From the IMG/VR virus record IMGVR_UViG_3300025425_001694: DNA of 64,000 bases. One strand, 5' to 3'. The notes under the pieces are model-generated. The model was not told the origin of the DNA. It did not search any database and saw only the letters and a program-made list of their open reading frames with translations. The DNA is from a virus. Shown here piece after piece: positions 2,836 through 39,448 of this stretch; position 1 is the stretch's first letter; the number at the start of each line of letters is the position of its first letter. The position numbers and the translations under genes were made by a program.

Positions 2836-3209
2836 TGAAAATTTTTGCTACAATCGCGGTGACACTTTTTGCTAGTAGTGTCACCGCACACGAACTAACA
2901 CCTACATATCCAAAAATATTACCGTCTTATATTACAGGCATATCAGTAATAAAAATGAAATTATGGAATAGAAGAGATGATGTTAGCTTTTATGAAATAG
3001 ATGTATTTGATTCTGAGTGGAACAAAATCTTATTTGCAACAACTGATAAAATTTTGCAGTTAACATATTTGGAGCATAAAAATTTTGAAGTCTTTATAAG
3101 GGACACCGATAAAGATAAAATAACCTTTGTATGTACTTCGTCAAAGCAATTAAAGAAAGACGTCGTGTCAACAGGAATAAAATCTAAAATTTGTTCAAGA
3201 ATAAAATAA
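2835..3209 (+). CDS. Secreted Ig-like, fimbrial-chaperone-like protein
   Basis: TAATG coupling to upstream gene; signal peptide then HELTPTY; two C-terminal Cys. Confidence 0.4.
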   Translation: MKIFATIAVTLFASSVTAHELTPTYPKILPSYITGISVIKMKLWNRRDDVSFYEIDVFDSEWNKILFATTDKILQLTYLEHKNFEVFIRDTDKDKITFVCTSSKQLKKDVVSTGIKSKICSRIK

Positions 3210-3226
3210 CACGAGTGAGATAAAAT

Positions 3227-3631
3227 ATGAAATATATAGTACTATTGTTTATCGTTATTGGTTCAGCTTCATACGCAGATTCATCTTCGTTAAATTTACA
3301 GCTGCCAGGAGCACCAGGCAATTATCAATCTGATAAGTTTCGTGCAGGTGACCTTGATTGTTCTAATGCTATTGGGTCGGCAACTAATTTAGAATTCGGG
3401 GTTACTGGTTTGATTGATAAAGATTATAACGATCCTATAAGTGGTTATAACCAAGACACTAGAACCGACGTTGGTGTATACGCAAGAATAACCATCCCCT
3501 TAGGTAAAAAGGCCAAATCGCGTATCGATTGTAATAGATTATTTGAATTAGAATTAAGAAAAAAGCAATTAGAAGTAAGAAAGCTAGAAAAAGAATTAGA
3601 GCAACTTAGAGAACTACAGTTCGAAAATTAA
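3227..3631 (+). CDS. Secreted hypothetical protein with C-terminal coiled coil
   Basis: Signal peptide, Cys pair, Glu/Leu/Lys heptads. Confidence 0.6.
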   Translation: MKYIVLLFIVIGSASYADSSSLNLQLPGAPGNYQSDKFRAGDLDCSNAIGSATNLEFGVTGLIDKDYNDPISGYNQDTRTDVGVYARITIPLGKKAKSRIDCNRLFELELRKKQLEVRKLEKELEQLRELQFEN

Positions 3632-3678
3632 AGGAAATTAGTTTTGTTTTGTAAATATTTAATAGGAGATTAGGACTG

Positions 3679-8162: not shown

Positions 8163-8736
8163 TGAAGCATCGTTTCGAGTTTATGTCAACTATCTAGCAC
8201 TTAAGAAACATTTCGATACTGATGGTTATGATTATCACAAATATAATGGAAAAATTAGAGCTTCTTTCGATAAATTTCAAACACGAAACGATGCATTCTT
8301 TTTTTATAAGTTATCGAAAAAAGAAGATCCGTTAAAAATTCTTATCGCCAATCTAGTTCGTAATCCAAAGGCTTGGATACGAGAAATAGTCGAAGATCGT
8401 GGTGAAGAAATATATGCCGAATGGGAAAAGAGAATGGATTCTCTAACCTATTCGTATAAAATGGATTTAAAAAAACTAAAAGACAACTATCACGACAACC
8501 TAGCTGTTAACGACGGGCAGCATCCTTATATAATGACTATGTATTTCCAAAAGGAAATTTCTATTGAAACTTTTACTATACTTTCAAAGATTTCTAATGT
8601 TTATGACTATTGGGAAGAAAAAGTAGTTGACAAATTCGTTGCACGTGATATAATAAGATTATCCAAGAAATATTATCCATTCTTGGAAATAGACCAAAAA
8701 AAGTTTTCTGCAATCACTAAAGAATACTTTTTTTAA
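8140..8736 (+). CDS. 59: Helicase loader gp59
   Basis: YLALKKHF..YDYHKYNGK, ISIETF; synteny. Confidence 0.9.
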   Translation: MTSLNYANEASFRVYVNYLALKKHFDTDGYDYHKYNGKIRASFDKFQTRNDAFFFYKLSKKEDPLKILIANLVRNPKAWIREIVEDRGEEIYAEWEKRMDSLTYSYKMDLKKLKDNYHDNLAVNDGQHPYIMTMYFQKEISIETFTILSKISNVYDYWEEKVVDKFVARDIIRLSKKYYPFLEIDQKKFSAITKEYFF

Positions 8737-8744
8737 TATAAATA
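8737..8744 (+). promoter_or_regulatory. T4-type late promoter upstream of gene 32
   Basis: TATAAATA. Confidence 0.7.
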
Positions 8745-8819
8745 GATGGTGGAATAAATCCACAACATACATCGCAATATAAACCAATGCTATATAACGC
8801 AAAACTAGGAGACACAAAT

Positions 8820-9758
8820 ATGACAATGTCATTTGATGCACTTAAAAAGAACCGTTCATCTTCACTCGATAAGTTGAACTCACAGCTCTCACAAATCGCA
8901 ACAAAGAGCTATTCAGATCCTAACGAAGGTAAATTTTGGAAACCAACACGTGATAAAGCAGGTAACGGTTTCGCAATCATACGCTTTCTTCCTCCATCAT
9001 CGGGAGAAGAAATGCCATTCGCTAGACTCTGGGACCACGGATTTCAAGGTCCAACCGGTTTGTGGTATATCGAAAACTCTCTTACGACAATCGGAAAAGA
9101 CGATCCAGTTTCAGAATTTAATTCAAAGCTCTGGAACAGTGGTGTCGAACAAGATAAAGAGCAAGCTCGTAAACAAAAACGCCGCCTTAAATATATATCA
9201 AACGTTTATATAGTTAAAGATAGTGGCAACCCTGATAATGATGGAAAAGTATTCATGTATCAGTTTGGCAAGAAAATCTTTGATAAGCTAAATGATTTGA
9301 TGAACCCATCCTTTGAGGATGAAAGTCCAGTCAATCCGTTTGATTTTTGGGAAGGCGCAAACTTCCGTCTCAAAATCCGACAGTTTGAAGGATATCCAAA
9401 CTACGACAAATCAGAATTTGACGGCCCATCGCCGCTATTTGAAGATGATGATGAATTGGAGGGAGTTTGGAAGCAACAGCATTCTCTGCAAGAATTGGTT
9501 GATGAAAAGAACTTTAAATCATATGGAGATCTAAAAGCAAAAATGTATCGTGTTCTAAATCTCACTGGTGATTCTCCGCTGTCAACAAATACAGCAGATG
9601 ATGATACAGATAATGATCTTGACATGAGCAAGTTTGGAAAATCTGCTGATGCACCTACGATGAAAGAAGAAACATCTTCGGCATCAACATCGCAAACAGA
9701 TAGTATTAGTGATGATGACGAAGATCTCGCAATGTTTAGAGACCTCGTTAAAGGTTAA
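8820..9758 (+). CDS. 32: ssDNA-binding protein gp32
   Basis: DKAGNGFAIIRFLP, WYIENS, FGKKIFDK, GANFRLK, NYDKSEF, acidic tail; AGGAG RBS. Confidence 0.97.
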   Translation: MTMSFDALKKNRSSSLDKLNSQLSQIATKSYSDPNEGKFWKPTRDKAGNGFAIIRFLPPSSGEEMPFARLWDHGFQGPTGLWYIENSLTTIGKDDPVSEFNSKLWNSGVEQDKEQARKQKRRLKYISNVYIVKDSGNPDNDGKVFMYQFGKKIFDKLNDLMNPSFEDESPVNPFDFWEGANFRLKIRQFEGYPNYDKSEFDGPSPLFEDDDELEGVWKQQHSLQELVDEKNFKSYGDLKAKMYRVLNLTGDSPLSTNTADDDTDNDLDMSKFGKSADAPTMKEETSSASTSQTDSISDDDEDLAMFRDLVKG

Positions 9759-9762
9759 CAAA

Positions 9763-9786
9763 GAGAAGGGGCTTCGGCCCCTTCTC
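9763..9786 (+). terminator. cUUCGg hairpin (terminator/mRNA stabiliser) after gene 32
   Basis: gagaaggggc-ttcg-gccccttctc; no U-tract. Confidence 0.65.
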
Positions 9787-9805
9787 ATATCTAGGAGGTT
9801 AAAAC

Positions 9806-10132
9806 ATGGCTAATAAAATATACGAAGAAGTTTTAGATTTCGATTTTGGGTTTACTTTTATAGACGAAGAACTGCAAGAAAAAGAACTTGCGGCTGCTGA
9901 CACTATTCAACAAGTAAGCTCAGAAAAGCAAACACTTGAAGATCAGCTTAATGATTCAAAAGTTGCTGCTGATGATTTGGAATATAGATTAGAACTTTTA
10001 TATAAATCTATTGTACCATTTTTAAATAATCTTTGCAAAAATCCCGATAAATCAACAATCTTTTGGCCTGATAGAGTTTCTAAAATTCAATCCTATCAAG
10101 CTAAACTGCTTTCAATCGCAGAAGGAAAATAA
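9806..10132 (+). CDS. T4-like hypothetical protein
   Basis: FDFGFT and PFLNNL..NP.K..I.WP.R motifs; AGGAGG RBS. Confidence 0.7.
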   Translation: MANKIYEEVLDFDFGFTFIDEELQEKELAAADTIQQVSSEKQTLEDQLNDSKVAADDLEYRLELLYKSIVPFLNNLCKNPDKSTIFWPDRVSKIQSYQAKLLSIAEGK

Positions 10133-10133
10133 T

Positions 10134-11243
10134 ATGAGTCTACTATTAGACAAACTTGTGAAAAACTCTACCATTAAACTTACAGCTCAACTTACTGAGT
10201 CGAAAGTTTTTGGTAAAAAGGAAATGGCACCAACACCAGTTCCTATGGTAAATGTAGCTCTTTCTGGTGATATCGATGGTGGATTATCCCCAGGCCTTTT
10301 GGTTTTGGCTGGTCCGTCTAAACACTTTAAGTCTGCGTTTGCGCTATTAACAGCAGCTGCATATATGAACAAATATAAAGATGCAATTTTACTGTTTTAT
10401 GATTCAGAATTTGGTACACCACAAGCATATTTTGAATCGTTTGGTATTGACATGGATCGAGTAGTTCATACACCAATTACTAATGTTGAAGAACTTAAGT
10501 TTGATATCGCAAGTCAGCTTGATGCAATTGATAAAAAAGATCATGTATGTATTATCATTGACTCTGTAGGCAACCTTGCATCTAAGAAAGAAGTCGAAGA
10601 CGCAATGAATGAAAAATCTGTTGCGGATATGTCTCGTGCAAAGGCTCTTAAATCTTTGTTCCGTATTGTAACACCGCATCTTAATTTGAAAGATATCCCA
10701 CTTATTGCCGTGAATCATACTTATCAGGAAATCGGTTTGTTTCCAAAGGCTATCGTATCAGGCGGCACAGGCATATATTATTCGGCCACGGCTATTTGGA
10801 TTGTTGGTCGCCAGCAAGACAAAGTTGGTACTGAGGTCCAAGGTTATCACTTTGTTATTAATATTGAAAAATCACGGCACGTTAAAGAGAAATCCAAAAT
10901 TCCAATTACTGTATCTTGGGACGGTGGTATTGTTAAATGGTCAGGTTTGATGGACGTTGCTGAAAAGGGTGGATATCTACGTAAACCAAAGGTTGGTTGG
11001 TATGAGGCAGTAGATCCAGCAACTGGTGAAATACTTTCAGAAAAACTAATGCGAGCTAAGGAAGTAAATGACAATGGCGATTTTTGGAATATGATGTTTG
11101 AAAAAACTGATTTCAAAGCCTACGTTCACGATCGCTTTACAATCGGTGCATCTGGTAGTATTATGCGTGAAGACGATAGTAATAGCAGATCAAAGTCATT
11201 GGACGATTTGGCAGAAGCTAATAGCGAAGATGATCTAATTTAA
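10134..11243 (+). CDS. uvsX: RecA-like recombinase UvsX
   Basis: GPSKHFKS P-loop, YDSEFG, IDSVGNLASKKE, SGGTG. Confidence 0.97.
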   Translation: MSLLLDKLVKNSTIKLTAQLTESKVFGKKEMAPTPVPMVNVALSGDIDGGLSPGLLVLAGPSKHFKSAFALLTAAAYMNKYKDAILLFYDSEFGTPQAYFESFGIDMDRVVHTPITNVEELKFDIASQLDAIDKKDHVCIIIDSVGNLASKKEVEDAMNEKSVADMSRAKALKSLFRIVTPHLNLKDIPLIAVNHTYQEIGLFPKAIVSGGTGIYYSATAIWIVGRQQDKVGTEVQGYHFVINIEKSRHVKEKSKIPITVSWDGGIVKWSGLMDVAEKGGYLRKPKVGWYEAVDPATGEILSEKLMRAKEVNDNGDFWNMMFEKTDFKAYVHDRFTIGASGSIMREDDSNSRSKSLDDLAEANSEDDLI

Positions 11244-11246
11244 TTG

Positions 11247-11275
11247 TTGACAATTCTATGATATAGTGATATATT
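11247..11275 (+). promoter_or_regulatory. Sigma70-type promoter for gene 41
   Basis: TTGACA-17-TATATT. Confidence 0.75.
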
Positions 11276-11349
11276 AAAATTAATTACAAAGGTGATGGCA
11301 TTGATCTGTGATTGGTGCCATTACTCATCTTAACAATGGAAAAATTTGT

Positions 11350-12780
11350 ATGATTGAAAAAACAATATTATCTAATTTGATTTACAACGAAGAATATTGC
11401 AGAAGAGTATTCCCTTACATTAAGGAAGAATATTTCGATGATAATAGTCTTCGTAAAATCTTTTCAACATATTCGGATTATATGAACGAATATAAAGAGC
11501 CGCCATCAATTGAAGCTCTTAAAATCTCAATAGATAAACGTAAAGATCTAAATGAAAGCGCGTATAAAGAAGTCACGAATTTAATTGATGAATTGAAGAC
11601 GGACGAAAAAACAAACGAAACGTTTCTTGTTGATGAAACAGAAAAGTTCTGTCAGAATAAAGATTTGTATAATTCTATTCGTAAAGCTATTCTTATTCTT
11701 GACGGCCAAGATAAGGAAAATGATAAGGGTGCAATTCCAGGAATTCTTTCTGATTCGCTCGGTATTAGTTTCGATACACATATTGGCCACGACTTTCTTG
11801 AAGATTTTGAGTCTAGGCATGAATACTACCACCGTAAAGAAGAACGCATTCCTTTTGACATTGATATTTTAAATAGTATCACAAAGGGTGGATTACCTCG
11901 TAAATCCATGACTGTATTACTAGCAACAACTGGTGGTGGTAAATCATTAGTTAAATGCCATATGGCCGCAGCTAGTTTAATGCATGGCAAAAACGTTTTG
12001 TATGTTACAATGGAACTTGCCGAAGAAGAGGTTGCTCGTCGTATTGATGCCAATATTATGGACATTACACTCGATGAAGTAAAGGAAGTTCCGCTTGATG
12101 TATTTAAGAAGCAAATGGATCGTTACAAAACAAAAACTACAGGGAAGCTAGTTGTCAAAGAATATCCAACAGGTTCAGCTCACTCAGGCCATTTTAGACA
12201 TCTTTTAAATGAAATGCGTCTAAAGAAAAACTTCGTACCCGATGTTGTCTTTATTGATTATCTTAATATTTGTGCATCAGCAAGAGTAAAGGGTGCAGCC
12301 GCAGCAAATTCATATACACTAGTAAAATCTATTGCTGAAGAAATCCGTGGCCTTGCTATGGAATTTGATATTGCTATTGTAACCTCATCTCAGTTTAACC
12401 GTTCGGGATACGACAATTCTGATGTCGACTTAACAAATACCTCCGAGTCAATGGGTATTACTCACACTGCAGATTGTATTCTTGGTCTTATTACATCAGA
12501 AGATTTAGAATCAAGAGGACAAATTATGATTAAGCAACTAAAAAATCGTTGGGGAGATTTAGGTTATTATCGTAGGTTTGTTGTAGGAATTGACCGTTCA
12601 CGAATGAAACTGTTTAATCTTGAAGACGGAGCGCAACGAAACATTCAATCAGAATCATCCAATAGTAAAACAAATAACAATGATTCTGGATCGACGTTTG
12701 ATAAATCTTCTTTTGGACAAAAGTGGGATATGAATTCAAACAAAAAGAAAAGTTTATTTGAAGTAGGAGAATTGCAATGA
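11350..12780 (+). CDS. 41: Replicative DNA helicase gp41
   Basis: TTGGGKS Walker A, VKEYPT, IDYLNIC, SESMG, KQLKNR. Confidence 0.96.
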   Translation: MIEKTILSNLIYNEEYCRRVFPYIKEEYFDDNSLRKIFSTYSDYMNEYKEPPSIEALKISIDKRKDLNESAYKEVTNLIDELKTDEKTNETFLVDETEKFCQNKDLYNSIRKAILILDGQDKENDKGAIPGILSDSLGISFDTHIGHDFLEDFESRHEYYHRKEERIPFDIDILNSITKGGLPRKSMTVLLATTGGGKSLVKCHMAAASLMHGKNVLYVTMELAEEEVARRIDANIMDITLDEVKEVPLDVFKKQMDRYKTKTTGKLVVKEYPTGSAHSGHFRHLLNEMRLKKNFVPDVVFIDYLNICASARVKGAAAANSYTLVKSIAEEIRGLAMEFDIAIVTSSQFNRSGYDNSDVDLTNTSESMGITHTADCILGLITSEDLESRGQIMIKQLKNRWGDLGYYRRFVVGIDRSRMKLFNLEDGAQRNIQSESSNSKTNNNDSGSTFDKSSFGQKWDMNSNKKKSLFEVGELQ

Positions 12781-12968
12781 GTTACTCAGTGAAAAAAAAT
12801 AAAAACCAATACGATATTTTAGAAAAAAATACTGGAACTTTAATTCAAATTGGGCATAGTGAAAAGAACGCGAGAAATACCTGCAGGAAACTAAATTTAG
12901 GATCTGGTTTTGAAGGATGGACTCCACCATTCTTTTCTAAAAAAAATATCCTTGTTAATTTTTCGTAA
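12777..12968 (+). CDS. Small T4-like hypothetical protein
   Basis: LNLGSGFEGWTPPFF motif; ATGA overlap. Confidence 0.6.
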   Translation: MSYSVKKNKNQYDILEKNTGTLIQIGHSEKNARNTCRKLNLGSGFEGWTPPFFSKKNILVNFS

Positions 12969-12987
12969 AGCATACCAAACACTTTTT

Positions 12988-12995
12988 TATAAATA
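12988..12995 (+). promoter_or_regulatory. T4-type late promoter
   Basis: TATAAATA. Confidence 0.75.
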
Positions 12996-13026
12996 ATAGA
13001 AATTAAACCTATAATAGAGAATAGAT

Positions 13027-14322
13027 ATGATTTCATTTAAAAAATATGTAAGAGAGAATGCTGATATGCTTTTTACATCGCAACAAGATAAAGCAAAATT
13101 AGATAGTGCAATAACGCCTTATACTTATACTGTTAAAAATTCAACGCAAAGAAAAACAGTTTTAGTTGTTCGTTCTCAAAAAAACGATCGTGAAAAAGTA
13201 AAAAGAGACCTAGAAAAAAAATTAGATGACGCGAGTATTAGTTATGAATTAAGCACTACTGGCGGGTCTGTTGGATCTACTGTTGTAAAATTAGGTTCGC
13301 AATTAATTCAAATTACATATAAGCCAACGTCAGGCGGAATGTCTGAAACTACTCTTAATGCAACAATCACTGAACTTGCCCCTGCGCTTGCGTTCATGGC
13401 AAAAACAAAATTTTCTAATATAGATGACTTGTATAATTTTATTTCTAGTGCAGACGGAAATAAATTAGGAGTATATGTAAATACTCGTGATGCAGCGGCT
13501 GGTAAACAATTTATTGAACAAATGCCAACGTCGTCCAAATATGCTGAAAAAATGGAAAATGCTTTAGCTATCTTAGATTATCTAAATGATTTAAATAAGC
13601 AAACTCCAGTTAGCCAAGTATTTTGGGGCTATCGGGCAAAACCTGCTGGTATTGCGGCATCTCATAAAGGAGATCTTTTCGTTAAATTTAAAAATGGTAA
13701 TATGCTTGGAGTATCTCTTAAAGCTGGCGGTGAAAAAACCGCTGAACCACAATTAAATACATATGTAAACAAATTCTTTGATGATTACGGCTATAGTAGA
13801 GAAAAAACAACTTTGCAGAGTGAAGTGTATAAAGCGGTTCACTCAACTATCGGTCTTCCTAAAGATTGGGATTCTAGAACAAATAAAAAATCTTCTATTC
13901 AAACAATTAATGACTACAAGAGAAAAAATGCAAGAGAGTATGAAGCAAAATACGATCAAATGCTCGAAGTTATTCGGGGCGGTTTAATAAAGGCGGTAAA
14001 CCAAAATAAAAATAAAACTATAGATTATATACAAAAACAAGTATTGAAAAAAGATGCGAGCGTTCCTTTGGTTGTTGTAAAGGCTTTTGGTAAAAAATAT
14101 AAAATGGTAACAGATGAAGATGATTTAGAAACATTTTTACCAACTATAAAAAGTGTTCGCGCTTATTCGTCTACATCTTCAAAACAAAACTGGTTTATTG
14201 AATTGAGTAGCGGCCGCGAAAAGTTAACAATGAACATGTCTGTCCGCTCGAACAAATCACCACCTGAAAATAAAATTGCTCAGGGTTTTAATCTTACTAT
14301 CAAATTTAATGGAATTAAATAA
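13027..14322 (+). CDS. PD-(D/E)XK-nuclease-like protein with putative capsid-targeting N-terminus
   Basis: MISFKKYVRE start; TITE helix ... HKGDLFV..(x)..GVSLK pattern. Confidence 0.5.
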   Translation: MISFKKYVRENADMLFTSQQDKAKLDSAITPYTYTVKNSTQRKTVLVVRSQKNDREKVKRDLEKKLDDASISYELSTTGGSVGSTVVKLGSQLIQITYKPTSGGMSETTLNATITELAPALAFMAKTKFSNIDDLYNFISSADGNKLGVYVNTRDAAAGKQFIEQMPTSSKYAEKMENALAILDYLNDLNKQTPVSQVFWGYRAKPAGIAASHKGDLFVKFKNGNMLGVSLKAGGEKTAEPQLNTYVNKFFDDYGYSREKTTLQSEVYKAVHSTIGLPKDWDSRTNKKSSIQTINDYKRKNAREYEAKYDQMLEVIRGGLIKAVNQNKNKTIDYIQKQVLKKDASVPLVVVKAFGKKYKMVTDEDDLETFLPTIKSVRAYSSTSSKQNWFIELSSGREKLTMNMSVRSNKSPPENKIAQGFNLTIKFNGIK

Positions 14323-14814
14323 ATGTTAAGCTTTAAAAAGTTCATGACTGAAGAAAAAAACTTACACATGACGCACGCGGAAGATGCTGTTATAGATGGC
14401 GGAATTACAGGTACTCGTAACGTTATTAATTACCTACGTGATATTCGTGATATGCTAGCAGGTAATACTAAAGCACCTGTCAACATTAGCGTTAAGTGGG
14501 ACGGTTGTATTCACGAAGACACTATTGTTCTAACCAATGCCGGTGATATGACAATCAAAGAAGTTGTTGAACGCTGTCAGTTGGATGATAATCTTATGGT
14601 AATGGGTAAGGAATTGGGTAGCCCATTACAATATGATCGCATGGTTCATATTCTAGCTGGTATGTCACAAGATGGCAAAAAGGCTTGGGTTGAAATTGAA
14701 TTGGAAGATGGATCAAAACTGAAAATGACAGAAGACCACGAAGTACATACTTCTAACCGCGGTTGGGTTAAAGCTGGTGAATTAACTGAAGAGGATGATG
14801 TGACCGAATTGTAA
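14323..14814 (+). CDS. N-half of fractured ligase-like nucleotidyltransferase (61-aa N-extein ending KWDG) fused to split intein N-part
   Basis: SVKWDG|CIHEDT..., block B KMTEDHEV, WVKAGEL, stop at canonical split position. Confidence 0.9.
   Translation: MLSFKKFMTEEKNLHMTHAEDAVIDGGITGTRNVINYLRDIRDMLAGNTKAPVNISVKWDGCIHEDTIVLTNAGDMTIKEVVERCQLDDNLMVMGKELGSPLQYDRMVHILAGMSQDGKKAWVEIELEDGSKLKMTEDHEVHTSNRGWVKAGELTEEDDVTEL
14506..14811 (+). mobile_element. Split intein, N-fragment (102 aa)
   Basis: Cys1, block A CIHEDTIVLT, block B TEDH, acidic C-terminus. Confidence 0.9.
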
Positions 14815-14848
14815 AGTGTGATGGATACCGCCTCAAATTACATCTTTT

Positions 14849-14856
14849 TATAAATA
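14849..14856 (+). promoter_or_regulatory. Late promoter for the HNH endonuclease
   Basis: TATAAATA followed by AAGGAGG RBS. Confidence 0.75.
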
Positions 14857-14875
14857 AAAATAAAAGGAGGCTAAT

Positions 14876-15523
14876 ATGACTATTGAATTCACAGAAGAAA
14901 TGAAGACAAAATACATTGAGAAATACAAAGAAACGTATTCTGTATCAGAAGTATTGAGATCATTTGATAATGGAGTTGGAAGAAGTAGAGTAGTAAAGTT
15001 ATTAAAAGATGAAGGTATATACGAAGGGTTAACCGGCTCTAACTATCTCCGGAAGAAAGTTGAAAATAATGAAAAGATAATGACAGAGAGATACGGCGTT
15101 ATTAATTGGGGACAGACGAAAGAAGGCGGCTACAAAAAACAAAACAAAATACCATACCAAAAAATATCTTATTTAGATGATAAATACAGAGAATATAGAG
15201 CTGCGGTTGAAAAAGAAACAAAGAAGAATATAAAACATATAGACTTTCCAACATATTGTTATTATACTGGAATACAATTTGCAGACGAAGAAGGACTTGT
15301 TAATCCGAACGACCCAAGAAAGAGAAGTGTAGATCATAAGGTTCCGGTTATTATTTGTTATTTAAACGGTATATCAGTAGAGCAAGCAGGTAGTATAGAT
15401 AATCTTACTTTTGTTTTAAAATATGTAAATTCGGTTAAGTCTAACACAGAACACAAATCGTTTTTAGCGGTAGCGCATAAAATAAGAAAGGTTTTTATAA
15501 ATGAAGGTTATAAAAGTAATTAA
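14876..15523 (+). CDS. Free-standing HNH homing endonuclease
   Basis: CYYTG ... RSVDHKVP ... DNL ... VNSVKSN; lies between the intein halves. Confidence 0.8.
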   Translation: MTIEFTEEMKTKYIEKYKETYSVSEVLRSFDNGVGRSRVVKLLKDEGIYEGLTGSNYLRKKVENNEKIMTERYGVINWGQTKEGGYKKQNKIPYQKISYLDDKYREYRAAVEKETKKNIKHIDFPTYCYYTGIQFADEEGLVNPNDPRKRSVDHKVPVIICYLNGISVEQAGSIDNLTFVLKYVNSVKSNTEHKSFLAVAHKIRKVFINEGYKSN

Positions 15524-15614
15524 ACTAAAAGAGAAGTATGAGCAATATGATATTAGCACTACTTCCGAAAACTTTTATGTGCGAACAAACAATGGATACA
15601 TATTAATTCATAAC
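15501..15614 (+). mobile_element. Split intein, C-fragment (38 aa)
   Basis: Block F YDI...NFY, block G HN followed by Ser+1; basic N-terminus. Confidence 0.9.
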
Positions 15615-16673
15615 TCGCCAGCTGTATTTGCTGGAATTGATCCTAGCGATGGTAAATTCTTTGTAGCTAAAAAGGGTATTTTTAATAAGAACCCAAAGCT
15701 ATATAAAACACACGCCGATATTGATGCTGATACTATTGGCAAGGCTGAATTAAACGCAAAATTAAAAATTGCACTCGACGAGTTTTCAAAGCTCGGAATT
15801 AAGGGTGTAGTACAAGGTGATTTTTTATATGAAAAAAGCGATATTAAAGAAGATAAGATTAATGGGGAATCGCATATTACTTTCCATCCTAATACGATTG
15901 TTTACGCTGTACCTAAATCGACTGCCCTTGCTAAAACAATACTCAAATCCAAAGTTGGAGTGGTCTGGCATACTGTATACCGAGGATCAAAACTTGAGGA
16001 AATGTCTGCAAGTTTTGGAGAAGAGATTGCAAGCGGTCTCAAAACAGTCCCGTCGGTCTGGTCAGTAGACGCAGTATTCAAAGATCAATCTGGCAACGCA
16101 ACATTTACCGCAAAAGAGACTGCTGATATTACAAAGGTAATATCTCAAATTGGTTCACTGTTTAGAACAATTCCAAAAAACACGTTTGATGCTTTAAAGC
16201 CAGGATCTCAGTATGATATTAATATGCGCCTCAATACTTACATCAATACAAAGGTTCGTGCCGGCGAAAGAATTGGTAGTCCAAAAACTTTTGTTAAAGG
16301 CTTTCAGAAATACTTAAGTGATTATTATGATAAAGAAATTGATAATAAAAAATCGCCAAAAGGTAAAGCAACCTGGCAAGCTAAAAAAGATAATGCCATG
16401 ATGTTTTTCAGTAAAGTTAAACCACGTGATTTAGAAAATCTTTTTACTATGTATAATTTAATCGTTGACGCAAAGCATACAATTATTCGTAAACTTGAAA
16501 ACGTTGATGGTTTAAAAACGCTACTCAAAACTAATAATGGTTATGAGGTTACAGGACAAGAAGGTTTTGTTGCTATTGACCGTTATGGTAAAAACGCACT
16601 AAAACTAGTCGACAGATTGCAATTTTCGTCAGCAAACTTTTCAGACAAGTATATTAAAGGATGGCAAAAATAA
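15501..16673 (+). CDS. Split intein C-part (38 aa) fused to C-half (352 aa) of ligase-like nucleotidyltransferase
   Basis: MKVIKV...QYDIST..ENFY...ILIHN|SPAVFAG; later QGD, QEGFVA, ALKLVDR motifs. Confidence 0.9.
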   Translation: MKVIKVIKLKEKYEQYDISTTSENFYVRTNNGYILIHNSPAVFAGIDPSDGKFFVAKKGIFNKNPKLYKTHADIDADTIGKAELNAKLKIALDEFSKLGIKGVVQGDFLYEKSDIKEDKINGESHITFHPNTIVYAVPKSTALAKTILKSKVGVVWHTVYRGSKLEEMSASFGEEIASGLKTVPSVWSVDAVFKDQSGNATFTAKETADITKVISQIGSLFRTIPKNTFDALKPGSQYDINMRLNTYINTKVRAGERIGSPKTFVKGFQKYLSDYYDKEIDNKKSPKGKATWQAKKDNAMMFFSKVKPRDLENLFTMYNLIVDAKHTIIRKLENVDGLKTLLKTNNGYEVTGQEGFVAIDRYGKNALKLVDRLQFSSANFSDKYIKGWQK

Positions 16674-16726
16674 TGGCGATGTGGAACAAAAATTCATTGT
16701 TGACATACGTGAATACCGGCTATACC

Positions 16727-16756
16727 AAATAGGCAACTCTAATTTGCCTATTTTTT
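16727..16756 (+). terminator. Inverted repeat with U-tract (terminator or operator)
   Basis: aaataggcaa-ctctaat-ttgcctattt-ttt. Confidence 0.55.
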
Positions 16757-25151: not shown

Positions 25152-27446
25152 ATGGTTGAGAAGAAAAAAGATAAAAAAGATCTTAAAAAAATAAAAGATC
25201 ATAATCCTAGCGATTATATTGAAACAAAGCCAACTATGTCTGAGGCTTTAAAGAAATCCGTGGTAGTAACTTTTGGTAGGTTTAACCCTATCACAGTTGG
25301 TCACGAAAAATTGATAAACAAAGTAATAACCGAAGCTGCGACACGTAAGGCTGATGCTGCAGTTTACATGTCGCATTCTCAAGATTCAAAAAAGAACCCT
25401 TTAAGTTATGATCAAAAAATATCGCTTGGGCAAAAAGCCTATGGTGGAATTGTAAAAAAATCTCCGTCAAGAACAATTATTGAAGTAGCTAAAGAATTAT
25501 CTAAAAAATATAGTACTTTTATACTTGTTGTTGGATCTGATAGAGTCAAAGAGTTTGAAGCACTTTTGAAAAAATATAATGAATTAGATTATACTTTTGA
25601 AAATATTGAAATAGTTTCTGCTGGCGAGAGAGATCCTGACTCTGACGGTGTGTCTGGAATGTCTGCATCAAAGATGAGAAAGGCCGCGGAAACTGGAAAT
25701 GTTGTTTCTTTTAAACAAGGTCTGCCTAAAAAGTTAAAAATATCTGCGGTATCTATAATGAACATGGTTCGTAAAGGTATGAATATTACAGAAGAACTTG
25801 ACGAAGAAAATCTTTCAGAAAGAGAACCACTTTCAATTCAACAAAGACGTAAAAGAGCTTTGGTAATGAGAAAGTACAAAACAAAAATAAAAATGGCACG
25901 TGAAAGATCTAGAAGAAAAATGGCTCCAAAAGAAAAGCTATTAAAAAGATCTAGAAAATCCGCTATTAATTTTATGAGAGACAGGTTATCTAAAAACAAA
26001 AAGTATTCTGCAATGTCAACAGCAGAAAAAATTACTTTGGACCGAAGATTACAAAAAATTCCTGGAAAAGTAATAGATCGTATTGCAACCCGTCTTTTAC
26101 CTAAAGTTAGAACTGCAGAAAAAGAACGTCTTGCCGGTGTTTTAAACCCGCAAAAGAATGAAGATATTTATGATATCAATAATATGTTTGAAACCTTTTT
26201 AGAATCAACATCAACAAAACCACAGGACCCTGATGTAAAAGATATGCCTGGTTCGCAACCAAAAGGTTATTATAAGGGTGTTGAAAAAGATAAAAAAGAC
26301 GATAGAGCTAGACATTTTGCAAAGCACGGTAAAATGGATGATGATAATCCCGACGCGTATAAACCAGCACCCGGTGATAAAGAAGCTAAAACAAAACCGT
26401 CTGTTCATACGAAAAAATTTAAAGATATGTTTGGCGAAAATCCAACTACCAGCGTAGTTCGTAAAAGACCTCATATGGCTTTAGAAAAAAACGGTTCTGT
26501 TAAATTTGACAAGCGGTTTAAAATATTTAAACCAAAAGAAAACTCAGTGAACGAAAGCCATGAAGACTTTAACGAAGATCTTGTAAACCTTATTAACTAT
26601 GTAGACGATTTTGTTATATCAGAAGATTTTGCTATTTTAACAGAATCAGATTCTTCAGCAGCACTTAAGAAAAAAGCAGAGAAAACCGGAATATCATACG
26701 GCATTCTAAAGAAGGTTTTTGATCGCGGCGTAGCTGCTTGGAGAACTGGCCACAGACCAGGAACAAACCCAACACAATGGGGATTTGCTAGAGTTAATTC
26801 ATTTGCTACTAAAGGTAAAGGAACCTGGGGAAAAGCAGATAAAGACTTGGCAGATAAAGTTAGAAAGGAACAGTTTAATTTGACAACAGGAGAAGAGCAA
26901 TTCTTAAACCTTGATGAACAAATTATGCTAAATAAAATTCTTGAAAAAATACACAATCACGTTTTAAAAGGCGAAAATTTAAAAGATGTAATCGAAGAAA
27001 TTGAAACCCTCATGAATACAGGAATTCCAGAGAGGCATTTGGAAGTAGAATACTTAAAAAAATATAATGATGAGTATATACACACCGAAGTACAGAGTGA
27101 AGACAGTGAAAGTTTATTAAAAAGAAACCAGTTACTTAAAAAATATGGTTATAAAGCAGAAAATAAAGTAAAAGATTCAAAAGATTCTTCGGCTGATAGA
27201 GAATATGGTACTGACGAATTAACTAAAAAATATAAAAAAGACACACCAGGCCAAACCAACGAAGAAGCTTCATTAAACTCAGTTATAAGTAGGGGTGATA
27301 CTGTCACGTTTAAACATGACTTAGTTACAAACAACACGAAAACTCTCGAGGGAATTTTTGTTGGAACTGATGGAGCTACTGGCAGAGCTAAAATAAAAAC
27401 AGGGGACGGTAAATTGTATATCGTAAAACATGATGAAATCGTTTAA
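25152..27446 (+). CDS. HIGH-family (cytidylyl/NMN-adenylyl-transferase-like) nucleotidyltransferase fused to a long modular basic tail
   Basis: FGRFNPITVGH, KKNPL, VVGSDR, SAGERD, MSASKMR; about 550 aa of further modules. Confidence 0.8.
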   Translation: MVEKKKDKKDLKKIKDHNPSDYIETKPTMSEALKKSVVVTFGRFNPITVGHEKLINKVITEAATRKADAAVYMSHSQDSKKNPLSYDQKISLGQKAYGGIVKKSPSRTIIEVAKELSKKYSTFILVVGSDRVKEFEALLKKYNELDYTFENIEIVSAGERDPDSDGVSGMSASKMRKAAETGNVVSFKQGLPKKLKISAVSIMNMVRKGMNITEELDEENLSEREPLSIQQRRKRALVMRKYKTKIKMARERSRRKMAPKEKLLKRSRKSAINFMRDRLSKNKKYSAMSTAEKITLDRRLQKIPGKVIDRIATRLLPKVRTAEKERLAGVLNPQKNEDIYDINNMFETFLESTSTKPQDPDVKDMPGSQPKGYYKGVEKDKKDDRARHFAKHGKMDDDNPDAYKPAPGDKEAKTKPSVHTKKFKDMFGENPTTSVVRKRPHMALEKNGSVKFDKRFKIFKPKENSVNESHEDFNEDLVNLINYVDDFVISEDFAILTESDSSAALKKKAEKTGISYGILKKVFDRGVAAWRTGHRPGTNPTQWGFARVNSFATKGKGTWGKADKDLADKVRKEQFNLTTGEEQFLNLDEQIMLNKILEKIHNHVLKGENLKDVIEEIETLMNTGIPERHLEVEYLKKYNDEYIHTEVQSEDSESLLKRNQLLKKYGYKAENKVKDSKDSSADREYGTDELTKKYKKDTPGQTNEEASLNSVISRGDTVTFKHDLVTNNTKTLEGIFVGTDGATGRAKIKTGDGKLYIVKHDEIV

Positions 27447-36460: not shown

Positions 36461-37741
36461 ATGCTCGAAGGTTCTTTAGCACTAGAATATTCTAAAGCAG
36501 TTAATTACGTTTTAAAACGTGATGGCTCTACTGAAAATTTTAATGTCGAAAAAATCCAAACCGCTGTTTCCAAAGCAATGAAAGCAGTTGGAATTAAAAG
36601 CAAAAATCTTTCAAGCGAGATTGCTTCTAACGTCGTTGTTCATTTAAACACGGATTTTAATGATATTATAGTTGAAGTTGATTCTGTTCATAAAGCAGTA
36701 GAAAATGTAATCATGGATATGGGTCTACACGATCTCGCCCGTGAATATATTTTGTTTCGTTTTAATAATATGCCAAACATTTTTCGTAAGCGTACTAATT
36801 TAAAACCATACGAATATCCACAGTTGGTTGAATACACGGATGCTATTCGTCATTCATATTGGGTACATACTGAGTTTAACTATTCGTCAGACATTCAGGA
36901 TATGAAAGTTCGTATGACTCCTGAAGAAGTTGAAATTGTAAAAAAATCCATGTTAGCGATTTCTCAAATTGAAGTTGCGGTAAAAACCTTTTGGTCGAAA
37001 ATAGGAGACAAGTTTCCAAAGCCGGAAGTTGCTGCGGTTGGAATTACATTTGGAGAATCAGAAGTACGCCATGCTGACGCATATTCAAATCTTATTGAAA
37101 TTATGGGTCTTAACGAAGAGTTTGAAACAGTTGTAGAAGTACCAGCAATGAAGAAACGCATTGCATACCTCGAACAGTCTATCGGTACTCCTACTGACGA
37201 TAAAGATTACTTCCATAAAATTATACTATTTTCTATGTTTGTAGAAAACGTATCTTTGTTTTCGCAATTTCTTATTATGATGGCGTTTAATAAACACAAG
37301 AATGTTCTTAAAGGTATTTCAAATGCGGTTGAAGCAACGTCAAAAGAAGAAGATATTCATGCTCGCTTTGGTTTTGAATTAGTAAACATTATTCGTGAAG
37401 AAAACCCAGAATGGTTTAACAAAGAAAGTGTCGTAGAAGTTAATCGTTTGTGCCGAGATGCGTTTAAAGCAGAGTCCGCGATTGTTGACTGGATTTATGG
37501 TAATAGCGATTTAGATTTCCTTCCAAAGGATACTGTAAAAGAATTCTTAAAACATCGCTTCAATCAATCTCTTATTGCAATAAAATTGAAACCTCTTTAT
37601 GAAGTTGATGAAGAAAAAGTACGTTCAACAAATTGGTTTGCAGAAGAAATTCTAAGTACAAAAAATGTAGACTTTTTTGTAAAACGTAGCACTGCATATT
37701 CTAAAAAAACAAAAGCTTTCACAGAGGATGACCTTTTTTAA
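36461..37741 (+). CDS. nrdB: Class I ribonucleotide reductase beta subunit with N-terminal ATP-cone
   Basis: VLKRDG..ATP-cone; ESEVRHADAY, ENVSLFSQF, EEDIH, DFFVKRSTAY. Confidence 0.93.
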   Translation: MLEGSLALEYSKAVNYVLKRDGSTENFNVEKIQTAVSKAMKAVGIKSKNLSSEIASNVVVHLNTDFNDIIVEVDSVHKAVENVIMDMGLHDLAREYILFRFNNMPNIFRKRTNLKPYEYPQLVEYTDAIRHSYWVHTEFNYSSDIQDMKVRMTPEEVEIVKKSMLAISQIEVAVKTFWSKIGDKFPKPEVAAVGITFGESEVRHADAYSNLIEIMGLNEEFETVVEVPAMKKRIAYLEQSIGTPTDDKDYFHKIILFSMFVENVSLFSQFLIMMAFNKHKNVLKGISNAVEATSKEEDIHARFGFELVNIIREENPEWFNKESVVEVNRLCRDAFKAESAIVDWIYGNSDLDFLPKDTVKEFLKHRFNQSLIAIKLKPLYEVDEEKVRSTNWFAEEILSTKNVDFFVKRSTAYSKKTKAFTEDDLF

Positions 37742-37792: not shown

Positions 37793-39448
37793 ATGGAAAA
37801 ATTTTATTGGCTAAACGAAGACTCGCGTACATTTTTATCACGTGGATATTTAAGTGAAGGTGAAACACCAGAAGGTCGTATTCGTAATATTGCAGACGGC
37901 GCTGAAAGAAGATTGGGTATTAAAGGATTTGCCGATAAATTCTATGATTATATGAGCCGTGGTTATTATTCTCTTGCATCCCCGGTATGGGCAAACTACA
38001 ACAAAGATCGCGGGCTACCAGTTTCTTGCTTTGGTTCTTTCATTGACGACAGCATGGAATCTATTCTGTGTGGCCATGCTGAAAATGGAATGCTTATGAA
38101 AAATGGTGGAGGTACATCTGGATATTTTGGTGCAATCCGTGGAAGAGGAGCTGAAATTAAAGATTCTGGCGAGTCTTCAGGATCTGTTCACTTTATGCAA
38201 ATGTATGATACTCTAGCTTCTGTAGTTTCTCAGGGTTCTGTGCGACGTGGTTTCTTTGCTGCGTACACAGATATTGAACATCCAGATGCTAGAGAATTTT
38301 TAGACATTGGTACTGAAGGCAATCCAATCCAAGGTTTAACAACTGGTATTACTGTTTCTGATAAATTTATTAAAGAAATGAAAGCAGGTGACGGTGATAA
38401 ACGTTCTCTCTGGGCAAAGGTATTACAACGCCGTTCTGAAATTGGATTTCCGTATATTTTATTTTCTGACAACGTAAACAATAACAAACCTCAAGTTTAT
38501 AAAGACTTTAAAATGAGAATACACGCGTCAAACATGTGTGCGGAAATTGCGTTACCATCTTCTGCAGAAGAAACCTTTACGTGTGTTTTGTCGTCCATCA
38601 ATATTTTGCATTGGGACGAAATCATTAAAACAGATGCGATCGAAGTAATGACTATGTTTCTTGATACAGTATGCCAAGAATTTATTGATAAAACCGAAGG
38701 TCAAATTTACATGAAAAGAGCTCGTGATTTTGCGATTAATCACAGAGCTCTTGGAGTTGGTATTCTTGGGTGGCATTCATACTTGCAATCAAATATGATT
38801 TCGTTTGAATCAAAAGAAGCGGCTCAGAAAAATCTTGAAGTCGCAAAAACACTTAGAGAAAGAACACACGCTGCGTCTAAAGAATTGGCCGAAAAACTTG
38901 GAGAAGCTCCATTACTAAAAGGCTATGGAATGCGCAATACAACTACTATGGCTATTGCGCCAACAAAATCAAGTAGCTTTATTCTTGGTCAAGTATCGCA
39001 ATCAATTGAACCAGAATTCTCTAACGCGTATGTAAAGGATTTGGCAAAAATCAAAGTTACTATTAAAAATCCGTATCTTACTAAATTGCTTCAAGAAAAA
39101 AACGAAGACAGTCTTCAAACATGGGATTCAATTAAAAATAGAGATGGTTCTGTTCAGCATCTTGAGTGTCTTACACAAGACGAAAAAGAAGTGTTTAAAA
39201 CTTTCTCTGAAATTAACCCATATGCAATAGTAGACCAAGCAGGAATACGCCAGCAATACATCGACCAAGGACAGAGTTTAAACTTGATGTTAGATCCAGA
39301 TATGACTGTTAAAGAAATTAACCAATTGTATTTGTATGCTCACACCGCGGGTGTTAAGAGTCTTTATTATAGCTATTCCATGTCTGCGGCGCAATCACTA
39401 ACTCGTAAACGTGTTATGTCTGATGATTGTGCAGCTTGCGAAGCATAA
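37793..39448 (+). CDS. nrdA: Class I ribonucleotide reductase alpha subunit (no ATP-cone)
   Basis: PVSCF, GGGT, SNMCAEI, AIAPT, DQGQSLN, KSLYY, C-terminal CAACEA. Confidence 0.95.
   Translation: MEKFYWLNEDSRTFLSRGYLSEGETPEGRIRNIADGAERRLGIKGFADKFYDYMSRGYYSLASPVWANYNKDRGLPVSCFGSFIDDSMESILCGHAENGMLMKNGGGTSGYFGAIRGRGAEIKDSGESSGSVHFMQMYDTLASVVSQGSVRRGFFAAYTDIEHPDAREFLDIGTEGNPIQGLTTGITVSDKFIKEMKAGDGDKRSLWAKVLQRRSEIGFPYILFSDNVNNNKPQVYKDFKMRIHASNMCAEIALPSSAEETFTCVLSSINILHWDEIIKTDAIEVMTMFLDTVCQEFIDKTEGQIYMKRARDFAINHRALGVGILGWHSYLQSNMISFESKEAAQKNLEVAKTLRERTHAASKELAEKLGEAPLLKGYGMRNTTTMAIAPTKSSSFILGQVSQSIEPEFSNAYVKDLAKIKVTIKNPYLTKLLQEKNEDSLQTWDSIKNRDGSVQHLECLTQDEKEVFKTFSEINPYAIVDQAGIRQQYIDQGQSLNLMLDPDMTVKEINQLYLYAHTAGVKSLYYSYSMSAAQSLTRKRVMSDDCAACEA

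Follow-up and report, generated by a model that had tools for sequence, protein, structure and literature searches.

How can one enzyme be encoded by two genes that have a third gene lying between them? The question is raised by a 64,000-nt stretch of DNA from an uncultured marine/salt-lake T4-like phage (IMG/VR record IMGVR_UViG_3300025425_001694; the whole stretch is called the window here), in which a single enzyme of the Pfam family DUF6267 (PF19782) is encoded as two genes at positions 14323 to 16673. We consider it very likely that this fractured DUF6267 gene holds a mobile cassette, made up of a trans-splicing split intein and a helix-turn-helix (HTH)-HNH homing nuclease, in a ligase-type enzyme. 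A preliminary description, made from the sequence alone, had placed a split intein at the catalytic KxDG motif of a ligase-like enzyme, with an HNH endonuclease gene between the halves. Re-inspection of the open reading frames (ORFs) and Pfam searches upheld the three-ORF layout and every coordinate, as follows. Host-protein residues are numbered as in the 413-amino acid (aa) joined protein.

14323-14814, + strand: N-half ORF, 163 aa, consisting of a 61-aa extein and a 102-aa N-intein; stop codon at 14812-14814
14323-14505, + strand: N-extein, 61 aa, matching positions 1-47 of the Pfam DUF6267 (PF19782) profile and ending in SVKWDG
14506-14814, + strand: N-intein, 102 aa plus stop, with Cys1 at codon 14506-14508 and TEDH at residues 136-139
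14815-14875, + strand: spacer, 61 nt, holding TATAAATA (14849-14856) and the Shine-Dalgarno sequence AAGGAGG (14864-14870)
14876-15523, + strand: free-standing putative homing endonuclease gene, 215 aa, assigned by fold and motif
15501-16673, + strand: C-half ORF, 390 aa, consisting of a 38-aa C-intein, Ser+1 and a 352-aa extein
15501-15614, + strand: C-intein, 38 aa, with the basic start MKVIKVIKLKEK, block F Y-D17-I-S...N24-F25-Y and block G L-I-H37-N38
15615-16673, + strand: C-extein, 352 aa plus stop, with Ser+1 first, matching positions 48-373 of the Pfam DUF6267 profile (E-value 1.7e-86)

The divided gene, its intein-free sibling and its recurrence

The DUF6267 profile is split between the first and the third ORF with no position lost or doubled. 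Because the profile positions continue exactly across the two ORFs, the break is seamless to a degree far beyond chance. The two exteins add up to 61 + 352 = 413 aa, which equals the length of an intein-free homologue, and the insertion lies between G61 of motif I (K58-W-D-G61) and residue 62, three residues after K58. The C-half ORF reads MKVIKVIKLKEKYEQYDISTTSENFYVRTNNGYILIHN and next SPAVFAG, its intein portion closing with IHN; the start of the C-intein and the 3' end of the nuclease gene share 23 nt.

The contiguous homologue across the junction that the preliminary description had called for was found in a search with the C-half protein. This protein (P0001) is 413 aa in length and 99% identical, and reads ...SVKFDG-APAVFAG... 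at the junction. The contigs that carry it (L001-L003) share the neighbours gp59, gp32, UvsX, gp41, a 63-aa ORF and a 431-aa gene with the window. In DNA alignment, window 8320-14497 is 98.9% identical to L001 1-6175, and window 15616-16693 is 99.4% identical to L001 6185-7262. From this alignment to the intein-free sibling the cassette is exactly 14506-15614, or 1109 bp. Four codons at the junction differ by five substitutions (TGG GAC GGT|TCG here vs. TTC GAT GGA GCG in L001), which give W59 for F and S62 for A together with two silent changes. An uninterrupted KWDGSPA had been expected in the intein-free homologues; the contiguity holds, but the wording is mostly KWDG-APA, with Ala at residue 62 in 89 and Ser in 21 of the 113 intein-free homologues. 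Since Ser stands there in those 21 proteins, the enzyme tolerates the splicing Ser at position 62.

The most divergent 200-nt bin in the 6.2-kb comparison between the window and L001 adjoins the insertion on its upstream side and contains 14 differences, against a mean of ∼2 per bin. Ten of the 14 differences are found within 19 nt (14400-14418), ∼90-105 nt upstream of the insertion. This patch, codons 26-32, encodes ITGTR in the window and VNGAR in the sibling; the cassette-bearing allele L004 has VTGTR there. Such a peak is what homing co-conversion, or substitutions protecting the carrier allele, would leave. The divergence pattern indicates that the cassette was probably gained or lost recently, rather than that the two alleles went through long separate descent. 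The ∼99% identical alleles offer a clean natural pair for work on the homing site, the co-conversion tract and current mobility.

The intein-free form is also present in sequencing runs: in the marine runs X7 and X8, contigs join 14497 to 15616 with TCGATGGAG (nine letters) between, at depths of 18.9 and 8.6, respectively. In X7, where the intein-free allele is dominant, a 151-nt contig of depth 3 is identical to a part of the nuclease gene (15208-15358), which hints weakly at a coexistence of the two alleles in this marine sample. A blastn search of the locus against 50,697 phage records gave no match, and relatives turned up at the protein level only.

At that level the cassette recurs. Nine more C-halves (P0029, P0047, P0060, P0090, P0099, P0164, P0225, P0264, and P0269) have the same C-intein, and their exteins are 40-77% identical to that of the window. 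In two listings of DUF6267 clusters, fractured genes accounted for 5 of 120 and 4 of 150 entries (∼3-4%), the 150 being the best of 2526 cluster representatives. The full three-ORF layout is found in L004, L005, L007, and L008, which were independently assembled and have different genomic neighbourhoods, and the 23-nt overlap between the nuclease gene and the ATG of the C-half is kept in all five loci. The N-half in L005 (L005:2448-3032) has a 27-aa C-terminal extension; the nuclease gene there (3001-3678) begins before the N-half ORF has ended, with a 32-nt overlap, and TATAAATA is part of coding sequence. Among the best 150 of the 2526 representatives we found no contiguous intein at residue 61 and no two-stretch match broken there. 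A phmmer search of all six-frame ORFs of the window with both intein halves, looking for a second split intein, returned only the locus itself.

These data bear on the possibility that the locus is an artefact or a dead gene, i.e., that an assembly or sequencing error has interrupted a contiguous intein, or that the gene is a decaying pseudogene. The window is a metagenome assembly, and the full window is present in six salt-lake runs that may be its own source. Against this, four independent contigs from different samples have this stop as well as the spacer, the nuclease ORF, and the ATG of the C-half, and because these contigs share the three-ORF architecture it is not an assembly artefact. 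Small contigs of X9, a salt-lake run of another year, lie inside the cassette and match it without a difference. The 82 nuclease homologues (210-280 aa) are all open frames. The fractured alleles retain every invariant extein residue, the 16 invariant family columns being kept in both halves, and are therefore not decaying genes. We regard an artefact or a dead gene as extremely improbable.

The split intein and the putative nuclease between its halves

Homology links the N-intein to the split intein NrdJ-1 (8ubs; phmmer E-value 1.7e-8, residues 65-160). Together the two halves show the features of a class-1 split intein: the Cys1 nucleophile, the block B TxxH (T136-E-D-H139), the block F Asp (D17), the terminal H37-N38, Ser+1 (S39), and exteins that are contiguous in intein-free homologues. 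Cys1, T136/H139, and an NRGWV segment are invariant in five N-halves, and M1, K2, D17, T20, N24, F25, L35, H37, N38, S39, and P40 are invariant in 12 C-halves. The break point of the intein is at the usual position of the endonuclease domain. The net charge of the N-intein is -13 and its C-terminus is acidic (ELTEEDDVTEL), and the first 14 residues of the C-intein have a charge of +3. Structure prediction for the complex of the two intein halves gave a score of 0.87, compared to 0.01 for the best control (58 of 80 solved complexes attain this mark, as do 2 of 110 mismatched pairs). Three runs agreed in at least 97% of the contacts, and the partner had a predicted local distance difference test score (pLDDT) of at least 81. 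As complexes of split inteins are already among the solved structures, the predicted complex may show likeness to them and not that this pair binds.

Two search results weigh against an intein here: the N-intein scored 25.3 bits with the Pfam Intein_splicing profile, below the cutoff of 35.8 bits, and a PDB sequence search with the 38-aa C-intein alone, which is too short to detect, gave no match. Set against them are the NrdJ-1 homology, the conservation of the splicing residues in the aligned alleles, and the exact continuity of the exteins, and on these the split intein of the preliminary description stands. We infer that the halves trans-splice to a 413-aa protein. The two halves of the host gene would be translated separately, and the acidic N-intein and the basic start of the C-intein would bring the fragments together in a class-1 HINT fold. 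Cys1, TxxH, the terminal Asn, and Ser+1 would then carry out the trans-splicing of the exteins to give ...SVKWDG-SPAVFAG....

The gene could also be fractured without any splicing, the intein halves serving as non-covalent docking domains and the enzyme working as a heterodimer. Precedents exist: in a fragmented phage ribonucleotide reductase, the pieces are reported to be held together by interaction domains that come from a mobile element (PMC3045599), and NrdA of phage Aeh1, split by an HNH gene and containing no intein, is active as two chains (PMC2677866). The predicted complex of the intein halves, moreover, speaks for association and not for chemistry. On the other side, all of the splicing residues (Cys1, T136/H139, the block F Asp, H37-N38, and Ser+1) are invariant across alleles with diverged exteins (down to 40-60% identity), which disfavours docking alone because docking would not preserve them. 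The break is also in motif I, three residues past the catalytic Lys, where a bulky HINT domain of 140 aa would occupy the active site. We consider docking without splicing improbable and keep trans-splicing as the preferred reading.

Relatives of gp41-1, NrdJ-1, and IMPDH-1 are fast orthogonal split inteins in use for protein ligation. The 102 + 38-aa pair described here, with Gly at -1 and Ser-Pro-Ala from +1, is a candidate orthogonal protein-ligation tool.

The gene between the two halves has a GC content of 31%, compared to 36% for the window. In the AF2 model of its product (pLDDT 95), residues 1-48 form a three-helix HTH/Myb-like domain (Z ∼7), with the GcrA DNA-binding domain as the best match (Z 7.2) and Tc3 transposase as another. 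Residues ∼94-213 match the Gme HNH nickase (4h9d) with Z 7.3 and a root-mean-square deviation (rmsd) of 5.8 over 92 of 97 residues; further fold matches are PacI (Z 6.6), GVE2 HNH (Z 5.5), and T5 SciA (Z 5.2). D153-H154, N176, N185, and K188 are invariant in 63 aligned nuclease homologues, which also have an N143-P-N145 motif. In PHROG the matches were weak: phrog_3322, 'endonuclease' (E-value 0.0016), and phrog_5104, function unknown (E-value 0.0063).

Other results count against an HNH assignment. Pfam, NCBIfam, and PDB sequence searches gave no match for the nuclease, and none of its 82 homologues has a Pfam domain. The top Foldseek rows were HNH nucleases, but with E-values of ∼0.2 only and none at or below 0.001, and a best Z of ∼7 falls in the middling range for the tool. 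The HNH endonuclease named in the preliminary description is thus borne out at the fold and motif level (Gme, PacI, and the invariant D-H...N...N) but not by a Pfam match. We conclude with moderate confidence that the product of the middle gene is best read as a putative HNH-like homing endonuclease. The genomic context was checked for four of the 82 homologues, namely the three most divergent ones (40-53% identity) and that of L004; all four lie between DUF6267 halves, and in the cases examined the nuclease family is therefore tied to one site. During co-infection the endonuclease would cleave alleles that lack the intein, close to their KWDG codons, and the cassette would be copied in when the break is repaired. 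The substitutions at the junction would protect the carrier allele from the enzyme.

The nuclease gene may have its own regulation. The T4 late-promoter core TATAAATA is located 20 nt upstream of its ATG, and the nuclease genes of L004, L005, L007, and L008 are likewise preceded by [T/G/C]ATAAATA. Predicted folding brings the promoter region into a hairpin with the Shine-Dalgarno sequence or the start codon, with z-scores of -5.44, -3.25, and -2.2 in three of the other loci and -0.5 in one. In T-even phages there is a precedent in mobE, where read-through transcripts hide the ribosome-binding site of the endonuclease and late transcripts free it (PMC2677866). By analogy, the nuclease gene here may be under late promoter/hairpin control of the T-even type: it would be transcribed from its own T4-type late promoter, and the hairpin would mask the ribosome-binding site in read-through transcripts. 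Two numbers argue against such control, the hairpin z-score of only -1.05 in the window and the count of TATAAATA in the window, which is not above chance (14 found vs. 9.5 expected). Thirteen of the 14 matches are on the + strand, many of them 7-55 nt upstream of gene starts. The TATAAATA copies at 860, 8737, 12988, 14849, 17350, 25113, and 36454 lie just upstream of gene starts. Among the sequencing runs listed there were no RNA data covering the window.

The DUF6267 protein and its neighbours

Phage genome records that contain DUF6267 number 448; HTVC008M, Melnitz, and the majority of cyanomyophages are among them, and the annotation of the protein reads hypothetical throughout. The searchable literature makes no mention of DUF6267, and likewise contains nothing on a split intein with an RNA ligase or on the S-PM2 locus tags. 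NCBIfam gave nothing for DUF6267, and the protein atlas gave only unnamed viral clusters.

Sixteen columns, including K58, D60, G61, D130, E377, G378, and K391, are invariant in 113 intein-free DUF6267 sequences, and K58, D60, and G61 are invariant in the five fractured alleles as well. The N-extein also carries a conserved H15/H18/ED motif (H-x-x-H-x-E-D). The C-extein carries motif III (Q128-G-D130), F151-x-P-N154, H180, motif IV (E377-G378-F-V), and motif V (K391-L-V-D-R395). The AF2 model (pLDDT 93.8, predicted template modelling score 0.90) shows a helical insertion of ∼130 aa (∼227-356) between motifs IIIa and IV. It lacks a C-terminal oligonucleotide-binding (OB) domain and ends ∼20 residues past motif V with one short helix.

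We compared this model with 48,161 PDB representatives. Ranks 1-7 were all RNA ligases: NgrRnl (Z 8.4), REL1 (8.2), T4 Rnl2 (7.6), Trl1 (7.6; 6n0t), full-length T4 Rnl2 (7.5), Trl1-LIG-KIN (7.4; 9r3w), and archaeal Rnl3 (6.8). DNA ligases were found at lower ranks (Z 5.6-6.5) among short helical-bundle matches. In a second structural look, RNA or DNA ligases made up 50 of 50 rows. NgrRnl was again the best (Z 8.8, rmsd 3.6, 183 residues), the match spanning the nucleotidyltransferase (NTase) domain 143-339, and DNA ligases matched through their NTase domains only (Z ∼6). The nucleophile of NgrRnl is K170; its catalytic metal is coordinated by D172 (motif I), E227 (III), and E312 (IV), and its K326 (V) contacts the phosphates (PMC7261155). 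K58, D60, D130, E377, and K391 of DUF6267 correspond to these five residues in order, and the Lys of motif V comes 14 residues after the Glu of motif IV in both proteins. We infer from fold and motifs that DUF6267 is most likely a covalent lysyl-nucleoside monophosphate nucleotidyltransferase of the RNA-ligase type, with K58 as the predicted nucleophile.

Sequence comparisons do not provide the same picture. The Pfam profile RNA_lig_T4_1 matched 5 of 113 DUF6267 members weakly (best E-value 6e-4), and an hhalign comparison with T4 Rnl2 alone gave a non-significant alignment of 11 columns that pairs motif IV with motif IV. Several results weigh against a ligase-type enzyme: hhalign against a 28-sequence Rnl2 profile gave a probability of 0.08, PDB sequence and profile searches with DUF6267 found no ligase, and Foldseek on the model reached E-values of ∼0.1 only, with none at or below 0.001. 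The assignment is made from a fold with Z under 9 plus motifs. Motif III has Asp where ligases usually have Glu, motif V is K-L-V-D-R and not K-x-K, and phage DLP6 has a gp30 DNA ligase in addition to the DUF6267 gene. The failed Rnl2 profile comparison is not evidence against the fold match, because that profile is narrow (at least 55% identity). Carbonic anhydrases also appeared among the Foldseek ligase rows and were treated as noise. The ligase-like nucleotidyltransferase of the preliminary description is thus supported by the NgrRnl fold match and the invariant catalytic residues, and not by the profile-profile comparison with Rnl2. We had also considered DUF6267 as the missing DNA ligase of cyanophage-like T4 relatives; this idea was downgraded because DLP6 carries both genes, so DUF6267 is not simply a replacement DNA ligase.

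The cassette may be read correctly and DUF6267 may still be something other than a polynucleotide ligase: an AMPylase acting on protein or small molecules, a capping-like enzyme, or a non-catalytic ligase fold. No sequence-profile link between DUF6267 and ligase families was above threshold, and a fold Z of 8-9 is moderate only. DUF6267 contains the helical insertion and the H-x-x-H-x-E-D motif, the latter without a ligase counterpart. Since the family is also fused to cytidylyltransferase-like, DUF5824, or P-loop kinase domains, another nucleotide chemistry is possible. Against these alternatives, all five lysine-adenylylation residues of NgrRnl have invariant DUF6267 counterparts in the right order and spacing, the rows of the second structural look were all polynucleotide ligases, and the joining of a kinase to a ligase is familiar from RNA-repair enzymes, as in Trl1 (9r3w, Trl1-LIG-KIN). 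We consider a non-ligase function unlikely, though a more serious contender than docking, and continue with a ligase-type enzyme.

T4-type capsid-targeting sequences (CTS) consist of ∼10 N-terminal aa ending in an [L/I]-x-E site for the prohead protease; the T4 sequence is MKTYQEFIAE (PMC8442874). The N-half begins with the leader MLSFKKFMTE, and residues 1-10 are disordered in the model. A CTS-like motif was found in the DUF6267 family in 37 of 113 sequences with a strict pattern and in 60 of 113 with a loose one. It is plausible from these leaders that the DUF6267 protein is packaged: the host enzyme would be packed in the head by its T4-like targeting leader and injected. A literature search found no virion proteome covering DUF6267. 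The features next to the locus are:

12988-12995, + strand: TATAAATA, T4-type late-promoter-like, upstream of the 431-aa gene
13027-14322, + strand: 431-aa gene, phrog_2496 (function unknown); its stop overlaps the start of the N-half (TAAATG)
16727-16753, + strand: hairpin resembling a terminator, with a T run after it, located downstream of the C-half (predicted by a consensus scan)

The 431-aa gene adjoins the DUF6267 gene in the intein-free contigs L001-L003 too. Its product begins with MISFKKYVRE, which is T4-CTS-like, as is the leader of the N-half, and may be a co-packaged partner.

Fusions of DUF6267 provide leads to its function. The homologue P0123 (636 aa) has an N-terminal P-loop kinase (AAA_33, E-value 9e-10; Zeta_toxin, E-value 1e-8), a kinase-ligase layout that recalls RNA-repair enzymes and may be taken as a lead. 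In P0133, P0160, and P0259, DUF6267 is fused to cytidylyltransferase-like and DUF5824 domains. The window encodes a separate 764-aa protein with these two domains (25152-27446), and in phage S-PM2 they adjoin DUF6267. This arrangement suggests that the cytidylyltransferase-like/DUF5824 protein and DUF6267 may work together. In the older S-PM2 record NC_006820 (L011, 103025-104804) the DUF6267 match is in two pieces, one annotated as a hypothetical protein of 192 aa and the other as a portion of a 'cytidyltransferase'; in LN828717, the resequenced record, it is in one piece, and the two pieces are probably due to a frameshift or an annotation problem in the older record.

A more far-reaching combination of these points is only tentative, and we hold it to be rather doubtful as a whole. 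It would make DUF6267 an unrecognised family of RNA-ligase-type enzymes that T4-like marine phages pack in the capsid by a T4-style leader and inject along with the DNA, a few percent of whose lineages need trans-splicing by a new NrdJ-1-like intein, with a new HTH-HNH family dedicated to the motif I codons and still homing. Continued homing is part of it because a 99% identical intein-free sibling exists. If it were true, injected DUF6267 could reseal RNA or DNA cut by host defences at entry. A ligase-type and possibly injected enzyme would give a function to a widespread marine phage gene.

The rest of the window is T4-like, with gp32, UvsX, gp41 helicase, primase, a Dda-like helicase, and NrdAB; its gp41 is only ∼50% identical to those of the nearest cultured relatives (Melnitz, DLP6, Cr30, and cyanomyophages). 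The Dda-like helicase gene (44538-45638) was examined as another fractured gene on account of its PHROG match, which is C-terminal only, and was rejected as it is complete by Pfam. Allosteric control through the radical-generating subunit of ribonucleotide reductase is an uncommon arrangement. The NrdB small subunit encoded in the window (426 aa, 36461-37741) has an N-terminal ATP-cone (PF03477, E-value 2e-16), and the large subunit (551 aa, 37793-39448) is without one.

Comparison with known systems

Among solved ligases, NgrRnl (Rnl5 family; 5cot, 6vt1), REL1 (1xdn), and T4 Rnl2 (1s68, 2hvq) are the closest in fold to DUF6267, with Z of 8.8, 8.2, and 7.6 over 178-193 aligned residues. They have in common with it the order of motifs I, III, IV, and V, the K-x-D in motif I, and the absence of a C-terminal OB domain. 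Their sequences are only ∼10-15% identical to DUF6267 and gave no significant profile match. DUF6267 differs further in the motif III Asp, the helical insertion, the N-terminal HxxHxED helix, and the lack of the N-terminal OB domain of NgrRnl.

The predicted nuclease resembles the Gme HNH enzyme (4h9d) and PacI (3ldy, 3m7k) in the fold of residues ∼94-213 and in the D-H...N...N pattern. It differs from both in its additional N-terminal HTH/Myb-like domain and in having no sequence-family match. Unlike PacI, it has no Cys4 zinc site, and a single Cys is invariant.

In phage Aeh1, nrdA is split by the HNH gene mobE without an intein, and the two NrdA chains work non-covalently (PMC2677866). Both there and here a gene of T-even type is split by a free-standing gene for an HNH-type endonuclease and its halves are expressed separately; mobE is under late transcriptional and translational control. 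The difference is that a complete split intein flanks the HNH-like gene in the window.

NrdJ-1 (8ubs, 9omb) is the closest solved relative of the N-intein. The two are alike in being class-1 inteins with Cys1, TxxH, a C-terminal HN, Ser+1, and an acidic tail on the N-fragment. The alignment is only partly identical, and host and insertion site are different. Splicing of NrdJ-1 has been characterised experimentally, whereas the intein reported here is known from its sequence.

The layout as a whole is that of the known 'fractured genes', described for gp41-1, gp41-8, NrdJ-1, IMPDH-1, NrdA-2, DnaE, a Felix01-like DNA ligase, and terminase (Dassa et al., 2009; PMC2677866). The locus shares with them the order of host-N plus N-intein, non-coding spacer, free-standing endonuclease gene, and C-intein plus host-C on one strand, the origin in T4-like phages and aquatic metagenomes, the insertion at an active-site motif, and a hairpin upstream of the endonuclease gene. 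Its intein of 102 + 38 aa is inside the published ranges of 88-105 aa for N-inteins and 33-54 aa for C-inteins (PMC2677866). The spacer is longer (61 nt here vs. 27-51 nt), and the start of the C-half overlaps the nuclease gene by 23 nt. The endonuclease is HNH-like with an HTH domain, whereas theirs are GIY-YIG or Vsr-like; the same authors predicted that HNH genes could fracture genes, but observed only the other two types (PMC2677866). DUF6267 is not among the eight types of enzyme in that set, a comparison that covers those of their hosts with a known function. The preliminary description had called host family and insertion site new. Within the literature that could be searched, host family, site of insertion, and family of the endonuclease do appear to be new, with the qualification that the known fractured hosts already included a DNA ligase, of a different family (Dassa et al., 2009).

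Fractured genes have been proposed as intermediates between contiguous and split inteins. To the known examples, the locus would add a DUF6267 host, a site inside ligase motif I, and an endonuclease of the HNH type with an HTH domain. The window itself contributes an intein-free sibling with its insertion map, a divergence peak, a habitat split of the alleles, and a conserved nuclease promoter and overlap. Although unsurprising in kind when set beside the fractured genes already described, the locus is solid, and it is useful for intein biology and for the annotation of DUF6267.

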